A stretch of DNA of 37,998 nt from a virus (Duplodnaviria; Heunggongvirae; Uroviricota; Caudoviricetes): IMG/VR virus record IMGVR_UViG_2526164630_000037. One strand, written 5' to 3'. Within the stretch, counting starts at the first letter, position 1. Every line of letters begins with the position of its first letter. Position numbers: made by a program. Below are positions 24,001 through 33,000 of this stretch, in pieces.

Positions 24001-27000
24001 TGATCAAACCGTGCTGGCGATACCCGTTGATAAGGCTATCGCTCAGGTCAGGGATCGCAGCAAATTTGCAGAGATATCGAAAAATTATGGTTATTTTATG
24101 CCGAAGCAGCAGGGACTTTCTCTGAAAGAGCTTCAGAAGGGGGCCAGCAACGTAGCGGCGGACGCGATCAAGAATGGCGGTAATGCTCAGGCTGCGGTGG
24201 ATGAATATTATGCTGCGACTGGTTCACAACCGCATCAACAGAAAATTCAGCAACAAAAACTTCAGCAACAGGTTATCAACTGGGCGGGAGATGATCCTGA
24301 TAAGCTGTCATTTGCCAGAAATGTAGCGGCCCGTCAGCCTGAAATGCTGGAACCTCAGAATCAGAAATTGCTGGAGAACGGGTATGCGAATTTTCTCCGT
24401 ATTCAAAAGGCCAGGGGGGAACAGGCCAGAGATGAAAGTGCTTCATCTGCATCTCAGTTTATCCGTGGACTGAAACAGAATTACGCCCAGTAATTCACGA
24501 TATTCCATTAATACCATTTCCTGATGCCCGGCCATTGTGCCGGGTTTTTTTATGGAGTCTGTATGGCCTATTCAGAGGAACAGCGTCCTGAGGCGCAACT
24601 CGGTAACCAGAATCGTAACAGCCTGAACATTCAGCAACCCGGCGAAACTGACAGCTATGAAGCATTTTTCTCTGATCCGAATCGCTGGAAGGATAACAGT
24701 ACGTCGTTCAGCCTGGGCGATGTATTGCCAACAATGGGTAAAGGTTTCGCCCAGTCCGTCCGGGGAACAGGGGAAATGGCCCGTGGACTCGGTGATGCGA
24801 TGATTCAGAGCCCGGTAAAAACAGGGGCGCGTATTTTAAATGAGTTCAGCCGTATGGGGCTGCCGGGTGTCGCAACTGTGCAGGATATTTTTGCCGGTGG
24901 CAGCAGGGGGGCTGATGAGGTCATCGATACCCTGCCTGATGGCAAAAACGCGGTTACTGATACTGTCGGTAAAGGTCTGAAGGCAACCGGTAAGGCTGTC
25001 AGTGATGGTGCCAAAGCCACTGATGAATGGCTGACCGGTAAGATGTCGCCGGGTGCAGTTCGTGCGCTGAATACGCCGATGACCGAAGGCTATAATGATT
25101 CTGCGGTCTGGGTGGCGAAGGGTGTAAACCTGATTGGTGCGCTTGTACCTGATATGGTTGCTGGCGGTGTGGCTAGAAAGGTGGGTGATGTCACACTGCG
25201 AAAAATGCTGACCGCCGGGCTGGAGAAAAAATACATCGCGGCAGGGATGCAGCCGGAAAGAGCCACGGCACTGGCAGCAGAAGCTGTCGATAAAAAAATG
25301 CCGGATTTATTCCAGGCGGGCCTGATCACCCATTCCACTGTAAGTGCACAGGGGCAGAGTGCAATGGCGGCAGCAGATGCTGTTCTTAATGCTGATTACT
25401 CTGAGCTGGCGCAGTCACCGAAATTTCAGCAGACGTTTTTGTCCATTGACGCCGACCCGCAGCACGCACAGCTTACTGATCGCCAGAAAATGGATCTGGC
25501 AAAAGAGCGTGTTGCCGATGAGGTGCGCGCGCAGCTGGCAACCGATCCTGAATTGCTGGCTGTGAATGCCATGGCGGCAAAACTGGGTGACGCACAACTG
25601 TTTAATCTGGTGACACGAGGCACAGCGAAGACCGTTAAAAGCGGCATTGTCAGAAATGCCACGGAACAGGGGGCGATTAATGCGGCGCAGGGCGGCTATT
25701 CACGCTATCAGGAAAACACGGCATTGCGTGAGACCGCCGGAATGGGTGTGTCACCGTGGGAGGGCGTGGCTGACGCAACGATCGAAGGTGCAGCCTTTGG
25801 TGCTGCGATGGGGGCTCCATTCGGTGCGGTTGCCGGATATCGTGGCAGACGTCAGGCCGCAGAAGAAACCGCCATGCGTGATGCTGAAACCGTGCAGCAG
25901 GACGACGCAGCCCCGCAACCAGAATCTGTTGATCCGGTGGCGCAGCAGCGTGAATCCATGCAGGGCATGAATCGCGAGCAGCTTCTGGAGCAGTATGCTG
26001 ATGCGGATATGGCAACAGAGGGTGACGCATCCGCAGCTCATCGCCGGGAAGCTGCCAGCCAGTTGTTGAATGAACTGGACGAACAGACGAAGCGACAGGC
26101 TGTGATGAATGAGCTGAAGGCGAAGCCGCGTTCTGAACTGCTTGAGGAATACCGCAGACTCAGCCAGAAAGAGGGGCGCACCGAGACTGAAGAACAACAG
26201 TTTCAGGCAATACGAGAAGTCATTCGCCCACAACAGGAAGTGACGCCGGAAGCACAGTCACAGCCTGAAAATGCGGAGGATGGTAACGGGAGCATTTACC
26301 CGACGGTGCGGTTCCGGGACCCGAATGAAGTCCGCATTGAAATTAACGGGAATGGTGCGTCCAGACCAGCGGAACGCATTGAGAAGGTGCGCCCGGACAA
26401 CCGTTATTTCACGGATGAGAAAAGCGCCATGGGGAGTGATGTTTTCCGTAATGCCGCCGCCACCGGCCTGAAACCGTCCGTAGTGAAGAAAGGCGAGAAT
26501 CAGTATGCCGTTGAAATGGATAATCCTGCGTTCTCTGAAGATGTGGCAACGGAAACCATTAACACCCTGGCTGACGGAGAGCGTATTGCTGATGCTGACC
26601 CGATGGAGCAGCCCGCGTTCATGCGTGACCCGCGATTCCGTGGTGTCACGGGGGATGATACGGAGGTACAGGCCCGCCTTGCCCGTGGCAACGCGCCGAC
26701 GGCAGAGGAGCTTGTACGTTCACAGATGGCTGAAGGTGATGCCGGTCCGACAGCACAGGAGTTAACTGAGCGTCCACGCCTGCCCGCTCCCGGCGATATT
26801 CATCCCGGACAGGGATATCCGTTACCGGGAGAAGTGGCGCGTACGCCGGATGAAAATCAGGCCGGACGTGGTGGTCGTTTTACCACAACCGGTGAGGTTA
26901 AGGGCCAGAGTTTCCAGAAAGGACAAGCTCCGGCACCGGAAAACGCCGCTGGTCGCCAGGGGGAAACACTCGAGGGTGACATGGTTCGTCGTGGTCTGCC

Positions 27001-30000: not shown

Positions 30001-33000
30001 GGTAGCTTCTGTTTACGGTACAGAAAATGGAAAAAAACTGAAGAGTATGGAAATGACCGGGTTAACGTTGTACCGGAGAGAAAAATTAAGCCGCGATAAC
30101 CTTCTGCACAGAGGGCTCCAATTGCCCAAAGGGGAACATTCTTATCGCGGCTCTGCGGATAAAATACTCTATCCTGAAGATATTCGCAAGGGGCCGTATT
30201 ACTCCCGTACCAGCAGTCTGACACCGGAAGAGACAATTGCATCGCGTTTTGTGCGCCAGATGCAGGATAAATTCCAGGTGCTGAAAGCTGTTCAGGAGAA
30301 TATCCGTAAAACTGGCGGCAAAGTGGACGACAGTAACAACGCTTATATGGCGGAAGAACTCTTCCACGGGAAGGCGGAAAACGACCTGAACGTGATGAAG
30401 GAGCGCTACGTTCAGCCACTGGCTAAATTACTGGCGGACTACAAAATTGCGCAGGCCGATCTGGATGAGTACCTCTACGCCCGTCACGCGCCGGAACGTA
30501 ACGCGCATATCGCGAAAATCAACCCGAAAATGCCGGACGGCGGTTCGGGGATGACCAACGCGGAAGCGGCGGAAATCATGCAGCGTGTACGTAACAGTGG
30601 CAAACAGGCACAGTATGACCGTCTGGCAGGGATTATTGACGATATGCTGGCCCGTCGCCGTGAGCTTATCCGTGAGGCCGGACTTGAAGAGAACGGTGTG
30701 GTGGATGCCTGGCAGAACGCCTACCGTTACTACGTTCCCCTGAAAGGTCAGGATGTTGACGGTGTGGTGTCACTGCCCCGTACAGGTAAGGGCTTCACCA
30801 TCGGCGGACGTGAAAGCAGGCAGGCCATGGGGCGTGCATCCCGGGCACAGTCTCCGTCCACTCAGGCGATACAGGACCTGAGCGAATCGCTGATCCGCCA
30901 TCGCAAAAACGAAGTGGGTAACGCCTTCCTGAAACTGGTGCAGGATAATCCCGACAAGGATTACTGGCAGGTATTCACCGATGACAGACCGGATACCATG
31001 CGGACGATTGCAGAGCGCAAGGACCAGGAAACTGGTGAAACCATTCGCGAAGTTGTCGAACGCCCTGTACCGATGGCAATGATGGCAGACCGGTACTTCA
31101 CCACCAAAAAGAACGGCAAAACGTACTACATCAAACTCCATGATCCGCGCCTGATGCGTGCGATGAAGAGTATGGGACCGGAAACCAGCAATGCCTTTGT
31201 TCGTACGCTGGGGAAAGTTAACCGCTTCCTGGCAACGGTGAACACGTCGTATAACCCGGAATTCCTGGTCAGTAACTTCATCCGTGACGTGCAGACGGCG
31301 GTGATGAACCTGAAGGCGGAGCAGGGAAGGAGCGACGGTAAACTGAAAGGGCTGGATAACTTATCCGCCCTGGCTGTGGTGAAAGACAGCCGTTCTGCCA
31401 TGTCAGCCGTATACGCCAGTCTGCGTGGTAAAACCCTCACGGGAAAAGGTGCACAGTGGCAGAAGGTGTGGAAAGAGTTTGTTGAGGACGGAGGGAAAAC
31501 CGGCTGGTTTAACATGGGTGACCTTGAAGGCCAGCAGAAGGAAATGGATCGCCTTGTCTCACTGGCGAAGGGGGGATGGAAAGGCCAGAGTATCGGTGCA
31601 TGGAATTCGTTCCTTAACCTTGTCGAGGATGCCAACGGTGCGGTTGAAAACGCTCTACGTCTTTCTGCCTATAAGCACGCCCGTGATGCCGGTTTGTCAC
31701 GCCAGCAGGCGGCGTCTCTTGCCAAAAACATGACGGTGAACTTTAACCGTCGTGGTGAGCAGGGGGCGCTGATGAATTCGCTGTACATGTTCGCCAACGC
31801 CAGCATTCAGGGAACGGCAAATCTGGTGAGAACGCTCGGACATCTTAATGGTGAGGGACCTTTACTGGAGCGCCTTCGCTGGAAGAATCTGAATGTTCCG
31901 CAGAAAATCGCGCTTGCCGCTGTGGGAGCAGGTTATCTGCTTGGCTCGCTTAACCGCAGCGTGGCGGGTGAGGATGATGACGGGGTTAACTGGTATGACA
32001 AGGTGCCGTCTCATGTGAAAGAGCGTAACCTCGTCATTATGAAATCGGTGTTCGGGGGCAAGGCCGGAGAGTACTGGAGTATTCCTCTGCCTTACGGGTA
32101 CAACGTTTTCTTCCTGCTCGGGCATACTGCTGAAGGTGTGGCGGCGGGTGACCTGACGGCGTCCCGTGCTGCCGGTAATGTTGTTGGTGGTGTGCTTGGT
32201 GCATTCAGCCCGATTGGCAGTGAGACGTCGGAAACACTGTCCGGGGCATTGCTGAAAAATGCAGCGCCGACCATTCTGCGTCCGTTTGCGAACCTTGCCA
32301 TGAATGAAAACTTCATGGGGGCGCAGATTTACCAGGAGAACATGCCGTTTGGTACACCAAAACCTGACAGCCAGCTGGGAAGACGTTCAACGCCAGAAGC
32401 GTACAAGGCGTTTGCATCCTGGCTGAATGCGTTCTCAGGTGGCAGCCAGTACCGTCCCGGCGCGGTGGATATCACACCGGAATCGCTGAAATTCTGGATT
32501 GACTATATCTCCGGAGGGACAGGGCGCTTCATTTCCAAAACCACGGATGCGGCGGTGAAATCGCTGAATGGTATTGATATACCGGAACAGCAGGTGCCCT
32601 TCCTGGGGAAAATTTCGGGGGAGGTGATGCCGTATGCAGACCAGCAGAAGATGTACGACCGGATGACAGAGATTGCGCAGTATCACGCAGAGCTGAAGAG
32701 TCTGACCGGTGCAGAAAGAACGGCGTTCATTGACGAGAACAACGGAAAATTGTCGATGAACGGGCTTATGCAGGATACCCGGAAGAGACTGAAGGATTTG
32801 CGTAAACAGCGTGATGCCATTTACGCTGACAGTACTCTCAGTCTGGCGCAACAGTCGGCGATGGTGAAATCGGTAGAGCGGGATATGAAAATTGCCGTGG
32901 ATCGGTTTAACCGCGAGTACAACAAAAAAGTGGGAGTGGATTAACAGAAATGGCCCCGTACGGAAGTGCGGGGCTGATTAAGAAATAAACACTCATTGAC

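Follow-up and report, generated by a model that had tools for sequence, protein, structure and literature searches.

The window analysed here, a stretch of 37,998 nucleotides from a tailed phage (IMG/VR record IMGVR_UViG_2526164630_000037), closes its run of virion genes with one giant open reading frame (ORF), and the question it raises is what a short-tailed phage does with a single protein that takes up 14% of its genome. An earlier note on the sequence had described a 2793-codon ORF at 24563-32944, with two HExxH motifs, and had proposed a polyvalent protein injected with the DNA. Translation and the ORF list bear out the frame, which runs unbroken on the + strand for 2793 codons plus a stop (8382 of 37,998 nucleotides, or 22% of the window). 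It is the last large gene of a + strand block that also holds the portal, capsid and tail-fibre genes, and a - strand block comes next. The source is a 933W-type Shiga toxin (Stx)-converting podophage (Traversvirus, Sepvirinae). We consider it probable that the product is the giant, encapsidated ejection protein of 933W-type phages, a polyvalent protein that shares its frame with gp50, the virion RNA polymerase (vRNAP) of phage N4, and carries different cargo. What is new here is incremental, namely a corrected domain map, a frame-and-cargo architecture, and the finding that two elements of the frame are homologous to parts of N4 gp50.

The protein is a known one, and of a known kind; it is already annotated and has lately been characterised by others. 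The ORF is 99.9-100% identical at the nucleotide level to 933W L0134 (99.9%), VT2-Sakai and ST2-8624 gp51, and 186 phage records carry the gene at 90% or more nucleotide identity over at least 80% of its length. RefSeq names the product "LPD5 domain-containing protein". In phage phi24B the counterpart is gp47 (vb_24B_48), 97.1% identical over the full length. A bioRxiv preprint on phi24B (April 2026) finds gp47, in which the same four domains are recognised, abundant in virions and missing from the cryo-electron microscopy model, and proposes it as an encapsidated ejection protein. Between the two proteins nothing of substance differs. The preprint's account lacks the two zincin domains and the relationship to N4 described below. 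The interpretation in the earlier note, a packaged polyvalent protein, is thus supported, the same proposal having already been made by others. The identity with 933W L0134, and a ribonuclease (RNase)-type domain that adds a second predicted enzyme type, had been overlooked.

Evidence for packaging comes from the mass spectrometry of phi24B virions. In the supplementary table of the preprint, gp47 totals 10,962 peptide-spectrum matches (PSMs), a count that only the major capsid protein exceeds. The batch digest gives it 746 PSMs against 101 for the portal, and its signal is strongest in the top gel slices and tails off further down the gel. Peptides listed for gp47 span the protein from its N-terminal block to the extreme C-terminus. 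Length-normalised batch PSMs, with the portal set at 12 copies, suggest about 20 copies of gp47 per head (range about 10-40), a crude estimate that is ours rather than that of the preprint's authors; applied to the nozzle the same calculation returns about 6, and for the spike, which is present in 18 copies, about 22. On this rough estimate each head would hold several megadaltons of giant protein. Per-slice counts are given per protein and not per peptide, so processing sites cannot be mapped by slice.

The domain map (Table 1) draws in part on Pfam scans of the whole protein and of ten overlapping sub-windows at E<=10. Pfam recognises LPD5, LPD1, MuF_C and LPD38, all far above their cut-offs, which upholds the assignment to the polyvalent proteins. 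The N-terminal region is Gly/Ala-rich as previously described (25-33% Gly+Ala at residues 101-500), and within it the segment we call the N-block has a hydrophobic helix at residues 181-208 and a glycine zipper at residues 401-426, seen by hydropathy and, for the zipper, as a Pfam hint. The linker that follows looks disordered and is acidic and Pro/Gln-rich, the latter two as the earlier note had it; calling its LPxPD-type motifs repeats was generous, for there are just three LPxP[DG] copies, at residues 740, 812 and 828. No Pfam hit falls in the linker in the sub-window scans, and it is conserved in close relatives only. Hydrophobic stretches in the C-terminal region amount to modest peaks at residues 2443-2467 and 2515-2533. 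In line with the earlier reading, a motif search found no Walker A, and Pfam returned no methyltransferase or helicase; SLT, lysozyme and amidase domains likewise had no Pfam hit in the protein or its sub-windows. A sequence search of the PDB with the whole protein gave no match.

The two HExxH motifs are GALAHEWFHSLDNYF at residue 1284 and LRHEIIHHAMEH at residue 1551. Neither lies inside a Pfam hit, and the sub-window scans found no peptidase family (best Peptidase_M76, E~0.1; MPTase-PolyVal, no hit). The first motif sits between LPD5 and LPD1. Across 62-72 homologues that share 37-59% identity, the surrounding H1263, H1284, E1285, W1286, H1288 and D1291 do not vary, and within the region assigned to LPD1 the residues E1375, R1379 and E1382 are 100% conserved (for E1375 and E1382, in 62 homologues below 70% identity). 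The phage MPTase clade described by Iyer, Burroughs, Anand, de Souza and Aravind in 2017 is marked by a His that ends strand 2 and an Asp three residues past HExxH, and zincin 1, here MPT1, has the same signature. An AlphaFold model of residues 1040-1460, which takes in LPD5 as well, is confident (mean per-residue confidence, pLDDT, 88; predicted TM-score, pTM, 0.81). It predicts an HExxH helix that follows a three-stranded sheet, and a downstream helix bearing Glu. In the model this first helix of LPD1 carries both E1375 and E1382. From the order of secondary structures together with the conservation, the simplest reading of LPD1 is that it forms the Glu-bearing helix region of a gluzincin, MPT1, and is not an independent domain; Iyer et al., whose text names neither 933W nor any other Stx phage, treat it as separate.

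For the second motif, distant relatives have HExxxH (LRHE..AHH), and the HEIIHH of 933W fits both spacings; HExxxH is a signature described by Iyer et al. The residues E1552, H1555 and E1607 are 100% conserved over 63 family members. The model of residues 1460-1900, which is based on a shallow alignment, is moderate overall (pLDDT 71, with domain cores at 80-90), and predicts that zincin 2, or MPT2, is a minimal zincin folded around its HExx(x)H, with the Glu that follows further on conserved. A Foldseek search of the PDB with this model gave no significant match. By model comparison the zincins resemble MtfA, lethal factor, PPEP and minigluzincins, SprT and ArdC, which points to protein-directed peptidases rather than to the LAS, M23 or M15 types. 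Both HExxH segments thus model as zincins, contrary to the possibility, raised in the earlier note, that they are not zincin-like, and we regard both, by fold and conserved residues, as predicted zincin peptidases. MPT1 and MPT2 show no significant similarity to each other in HHalign, and are therefore not recent duplicates. The idea that a PPEP-like MPT1 might cleave its own protein at the LPxPD motifs of the linker was considered, and no evidence for it was found.

The MuF-C domain is called a metallopeptidase in the phi24B preprint, whereas Iyer et al. describe the family as an RNase, PBECR. The residues K1745, S1816 and G1819 are 100% conserved, and H1752 95%, in 22 homologues below 60% identity; H1752 and S1816 were assigned as catalytic positions from the published family description and not by structural superposition. 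The modelled domain consists of a helix and beta-strands, and its Foldseek matches to RelE-family toxins are non-significant (TM 0.45-0.50). As judged by its conserved residues, the MuF-C domain of the giant protein is probably an active RNase. Relatives in E. coli and Salmonella carry alternative PBECR alleles at 45-55% identity, and the least conserved part of the giant relative to phi24B is the stretch directly after the PBECR domain (78%), both of which fit a rapidly exchanged cargo module. Against phi24B gp47, divergence is concentrated in two hot spots, residues 101-200 (24863-25162; 86% identity) and residues 1801-1900 (29963-30262; 78%), with 95-100% elsewhere. Together, the local divergence and the PBECR alleles suggest modular exchange within Stx-phage giants.

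Searches with the separate parts of the protein reveal a family. By tblastn the C-module recurs in podophages of Vibrio (41% identity), in GP4-like phages of Ralstonia and Bcep22-like phages of Burkholderia (27%), where the product is labelled "DarB-like antirestriction", and also in phages of Bacteroides and Bacillus. Its profile scores 494 bits on the giant of Ralstonia phage Cimandef and 482 bits on that of phage Pondi. Word-indexed homologue searches with the N-block and with residues 1460-1900 returned little besides enterobacterial fragments. An exhaustive HMMER search with residues 1-470 collected about 60 giants of 1.7-4.7 thousand residues with the block within the first ~145 residues. 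With iterated profiles, the N-block is found in 64 of 64 proteins and MPT2 in 63 of 64, and in 57 of 61 a further 849-1157 residues follow MPT2, in the form of an LPD38-type or LPD39-type tail. What lies between N-block and MPT2 differs from giant to giant: Eco57I-type methylase with SNF2/helicase, ddrB-ParB, small methyltransferases, AAA_34/Helicase_C_4, inorganic pyrophosphatase or SLT. In the 933W type this place is held by a conserved cargo unit, LPD5-MPT1-LPD1, of which LPD5 is the N-terminal part, and PBECR is an optional insert past MPT2. At the level of these profiles, a frame made of N-block, variable cargo, zincin 2 and some 850-1150 further residues is common to about 60 giants, and by the same comparison the first HExxH of the Stx-phage protein is cargo and the second is frame.

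The cargo unit is also found outside giants, as stand-alone proteins of about 400-600 residues. One of these, a 574-residue LPD5-zincin-LPD1 protein, is encoded at 8001-9725 of a Gemmobacter caeni contig, where it adjoins an H-NS-like gene, genes for Tn7-like TniQ, TniB and transposase, PcfJ, and a 1,707-residue AAA_34/Helicase_C_4 protein. The cargo unit of Stx giants therefore also circulates on mobile elements other than phages. In Cimandef the giant (3141-16778; 4,545 residues, "DarB-like") has an SLT domain before the N-block, and is the sole family member seen in which the N-block does not lie at the extreme N-terminus (it starts at residue ~288).

Among the closest known systems are the giants Bcep22 gp75, JC1 gp69 and those of Ralstonia GP4-like phages. 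They share with the 933W giant the C-module with LPD38 (27% identity over ~900 residues), the N-block, and an HExxH domain just before the C-module. Their genes are last in the virion block after a virion protein of ~510 residues, the position seen in 933W, their phages encode relatives of the 933W portal, capsid and head-closure proteins, and the giants are virion-associated by mass spectrometry (JC1 gp69 being the C-module relative). They differ in cargo, which is SLT, Eco57I-type methylase, helicase and LPD3, none of them present in the 933W giant. The polyvalent class of Iyer et al. is likewise shared in its several unrelated domains, in LPD5, LPD1, LPD38, MuF-C/PBECR and MPTase, and in its late gene. 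A functional result comes from a CRISPRi-ART study, in which PTXU04_00025, a 2,198-residue protein with LPD38 as its sole annotation, was critical for infection. Pondi_00077, of the same genus (Xuquatrovirus) and of 2,192 residues, matches MPT2 at 114 bits and has the C-module match given above, with no significant N-block; the orthology of the two proteins is inferred from genus and size. That an LPD38-only protein is critical, and that its Pondi relative holds MPT2 and C-module, argues for a core role of the frame in infection, consistent with ejection.

Two elements of the frame point to N4. Iyer et al. recovered only N4-like phages with the N-terminal region of the N4 protein. Plain BLAST relates the Cimandef giant to the N-terminal domain (NTD) of N4 gp50 at E 9e-13. 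A hidden Markov model (HMM) of the N-block, from which N4 and the Ralstonia protein were left out, matches residues 231-445 of N4 gp50 at 36 bits (E 2e-10). HHalign scores the N-block at 95.2% against N4 alone, and at 98.6% (E 1e-15, 207 columns) against an NTD profile of Schitoviridae built from eight vRNAP sequences, N4 and seven others. For MPT2 against the C1 domain, HHalign gives 91.6% over 162 columns (E 8e-7), in which the strands, the HExxH and the Glu beyond it line up. Seven controls, including MPT1 against C1 (1.2%) and MPT1 against MPT2, all score 5% or less. In Pfam no RNA polymerase module is hit in the giant protein, and its sole PHROG match to a vRNAP is the N-block. The N-block and zincin 2 are thus homologous to the NTD and C1 of N4 gp50, a modest and incremental evolutionary link. 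A search of texts on N4 and phi24B and of Iyer et al. turned up no mention of a relationship between Stx-phage giants and the N4 NTD.

According to a 2026 paper on N4, the NTD of gp50 binds lipid (predicted membrane helices at residues 224-278; nanodisc incorporation). A low-complexity linker connects the NTD with the remainder of gp50, and the authors propose that NTD and gp51 together make up the inner-membrane complex. The same paper reports a conserved HExxH in C1, and proposes that gp50 lies as beads on a string in the head and is ejected after gp52 and gp51. The likeness to the 933W giant extends beyond the two domains. Both proteins are giants that a T=9 podophage packs into its capsid and that virion maps do not show; both have the order NTD, low-complexity linker, cargo, HExxH zincin-like domain and ~1,100 further residues, with smaller virion genes directly upstream. 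They differ in cargo, RNA polymerase in N4 as against LPD5-zincin and PBECR in the 933W giant.

The course of events that we favour is the following. Some 10-40 copies, unfolded or loosely folded, would lie in the T=9 capsid and exit through the short tail together with the products of the cassette of small genes upstream. The N-block would insert into, or anchor at, the inner membrane within a trans-envelope conduit, and the linker of ~470 residues would tether the downstream beads in the cytoplasm. There the peptidase and RNase cargo could act early on host (or phage) proteins and RNAs. Zincin 2 and the C-module might serve encapsidation, autoprocessing after ejection that frees the cargo, or both. 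A broader proposal is that the 933W/phi24B giant, the Bcep22/GP4-type giants, the LPD38 protein of PTXU04 and the N4 vRNAP all descend from one modular ejection frame of podophages, made of a membrane-anchoring N-block, a dedicated HExx(x)H zincin and a C-terminal module of ~1,000 residues, with enzymatic cargo of any kind placed between the first two. The zincin would then cut the protein after ejection and release the cargo from the membrane-tethered N-block; in Stx phages that cargo would be a protease plus an RNase that disarm or reprogramme the newly infected E. coli. This we put forward tentatively, as somewhat doubtful in its entirety.

Several observations weigh against an ejection protein of N4 type. 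Packaging is seen for gp47; that the protein leaves the capsid and enters the cell in 933W-type phages is what we infer from its kinship with N4 gp50 and from the reconstructed virion model, which does not contain it. The estimate of about 20 copies is far above the ~4 of N4, and may mean a more structural, inner-core role. Since most of the gp47 signal stays near the gel top, no processing is evident in the virion, and any processing would be post-ejection. The N-block has weakly hydrophobic segments (Kyte-Doolittle values reach 1.38 at most), and the match of its HMM to N4 has a high compositional bias score. Similarity to N4 is not detected between the C-module and C2 (HHalign 1.8%, no HMM hit) and between the upstream cassette and N4 gp51 or gp52. 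Finally, the giant has no domain for hydrolysing peptidoglycan, though the Ralstonia homologue has its SLT.

Some of these points would suit the reading offered in the phi24B preprint, that the protein is purely structural, an ejectosome or inner-core conduit, with metallopeptidases that digest peptidoglycan and other domains that act as scaffolding. High abundance in the virion and the critical role of the frame-only PTXU04 relative agree with it, and the SLT lytic transglycosylase of the Ralstonia homologue makes wall breaching possible for the family. We nevertheless judge it unlikely. What the preprint calls a "Muf-C metallopeptidase" is by the description of Iyer et al. an RNase-type domain, the zincin folds resemble those of protein-directed peptidases and not of cell-wall ones, and no SLT, lysozyme or amidase domain is found in the 933W giant itself. 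The catalytic residues of PBECR and of the zincins are strictly conserved, which argues for activity, and the cargo varies between relatives as effectors do.

A much less probable reading makes the giant an accessory anti-restriction effector of the P1 DarB type, dispensable for entry on hosts free of defences. Iyer et al. cast polyvalent proteins generally as counter-defence, the Ralstonia and Burkholderia homologues are annotated DarB-like and do carry an Eco57I-type methylase and a helicase, and residues 2351-2681 of the 933W giant weakly match PHROG 10089, "DarB-like antirestriction". DarB and DdrB of P1 are likewise polyvalent proteins packaged in the head and delivered, DdrB with a C-terminal MPTase. 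They come, however, from a myovirus, with no common frame. The likeness of the 933W giant to "DarB-like" proteins is confined to the C-module and LPD38, that is, to the frame, and the methylase-helicase dyad of DarB is missing: no methylase, helicase or Walker A is found by the method that detects them in the relatives. In addition, N-block and MPT2 are homologous to segments of N4 gp50 that work in ejection and in anchoring at the membrane, and an LPD38-only relative is critical for infecting a laboratory host. On these grounds the DarB-type reading was rejected, and an anti-defence role for the giant protein is speculation.

That the gene encodes a structural protein of tail, tape-measure or fibre type, or is a chance or fused ORF, has practically no chance of being right: its sole support is size and place at the end of the virion block, and it is refuted by full-length conservation in the 186 phage records, by peptides over the whole length, by a podovirus tail of phi24B fully modelled without the giant protein, and by the lack of any tail or tape-measure family hit.

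The ejection protein that we favour matters for several reasons. Phages of the 933W type spread Shiga toxin genes, and the passage of short-tailed phages through the envelope of E. coli is poorly understood. With anchor and frame zincin shared, recent structural and mechanistic work on N4 can be a template for Stx-phage experiments, and the N4 virion RNA polymerase becomes one among the cargoes that a widespread delivery system carries. Should the cargo act on the host at infection, it could affect lysogenic conversion and the host range of Stx phages. With two predicted zincins invisible to Pfam, LPD1 placed within the first of them and MuF-C read as RNase-type, the corrected map shows exactly which residues to mutate.

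Table 1. Features of the giant gene, its product and the genes directly upstream (window positions; residues of the 2793-residue protein)
Feature	Residues	Position	Strand	Basis or remark
Cassette gene 1		21380-21757	+	Collinear with Vibrio phage D67; not seen in the available part of the phi24B virion table
Cassette gene 2		21851-22507	+	Collinear with Vibrio phage D67 cassette
Cassette gene 3		22510-22956	+	Collinear with Vibrio phage D67 cassette
Cassette gene 4, Gly-zipper		22966-23217	+	Collinear with Vibrio phage D67 cassette
Cassette gene 5, 421 aa		23228-24493	+	Collinear with Vibrio phage D67 cassette
Terminator-like hairpin, GCCCGGC-cattgt-GCCGGG then T7		24526..24552	+	7 pairs, 6 of them G-C; stem-loop 24526-24545
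Ribosome-binding site, GGAG		24554..24557	+	5 nt before ATG 24563; sequence; annotated in NC_049922
Giant ORF (933W L0134 / ST2-8624 gp51 / phi24B gp47)		24563..32944	+	Translation, nucleotide identity, RefSeq
N-block	~100-430	24860..25852	+	Profile homology to the lipid-binding NTD of N4 vRNAP
Low-complexity acidic Pro/Gln-rich linker	~431-900	25853..27262	+	Composition; three LPxP[DG] motifs
LPD5	1051-1200	27713..28162	+	Pfam E 6.5e-45; confident within the model of residues 1040-1460
Zincin 1 (MPT1), predicted	~1200-1440	28163..28882	+	HEWFH at 1284-1288; includes Pfam LPD1, residues 1361-1440
Zincin 2 (MPT2), predicted	1471-1688	28973..29626	+	HEIIHH (HExxH/HExxxH, residue 1551), E1607; homologous to N4 vRNAP C1
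MuF-C/PBECR, predicted RNase	~1715-1850	29705..30112	+	Pfam MuF_C at 1750-1839 (64 bits, cut-off 27.6; E 1.3e-17)
C-module	~1870-2793	30170..32941	+	Common to giant virion proteins of other podophages
LPD38	2476-2681	31988..32605	+	Pfam E 7.6e-48; inside the C-module

The cassette of five genes upstream of the giant gene (21380-24493) matches genes 0015-0018 and 0020 of Vibrio phage D67 gene for gene, and in D67 as well the giant, of 3,066 residues, comes next. Functions assigned through PHROG are "virion structural protein" or none. As listed in the phi24B tables, virions hold four cassette products, of 421 residues (gp48; 1,634 PSMs), 161 residues (phi24B gp50), 260 residues (phi24B gp51) and 86 residues (the Gly-zipper protein), and the cassette products are likely co-packaged internal or ejection proteins. 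The 421-residue protein belongs to PHROG 601, is entered as "Transcription factor?" in the phi24B tables, and exceeds the portal in length-normalised PSMs. Counterparts of 467-513 residues precede the giants in Vibrio D67, Ralstonia Cimandef and Burkholderia JC1; the JC1 protein of 510 residues, encoded upstream of the giant, is virion-associated. The product of the Gly-zipper gene in the window has 83 residues, with the glycine zipper at its C-terminus, and is annotated as "bacteriocin" in ST2-8624. In the phi24B study, what its authors call "a homolog of a bacteriocin" was put down to contamination. The protein has 42% identity to D67_0018 and 13 PSMs in virions, and may be a true internal or ejection protein.

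The start of the giant gene deserves a remark. The mechanical ORF list offers an upstream alternative, the ATG at 24524, which would give 2806 residues. A strong terminator-like hairpin separates the upstream gene from the giant gene, and the ATG at 24524 falls at or in this hairpin, whereas a GGAG precedes the ATG at 24563; the latter, which is the RefSeq start, is therefore credible. The GenBank record of phi24B and the mass spectrometry database of the preprint start the giant protein upstream of the hairpin (2807 and 2811 residues), which is probably a mis-annotation. Late transcription antiterminated by Q would read through the hairpin, which could make expression of the giant gene depend on Q antitermination.

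The GenBank record of phi24B also annotates three antisense ORFs within the giant gene, vb_24B_50c, 51c and 52c (6292-6615, 8767-9147 and 9498-9869, all on the - strand). Similar antisense ORFs are present within 24563-32944 of the window, and such ORFs are most likely spurious. Further upstream, the tail-fibre gene at 12689-14626 of the window encodes five stretches of collagen triple-helix repeats together with Phage_fiber_2 and Phage_fiber_C domains, and corresponds to the lateral fibre or spike, gp61, of phi24B.

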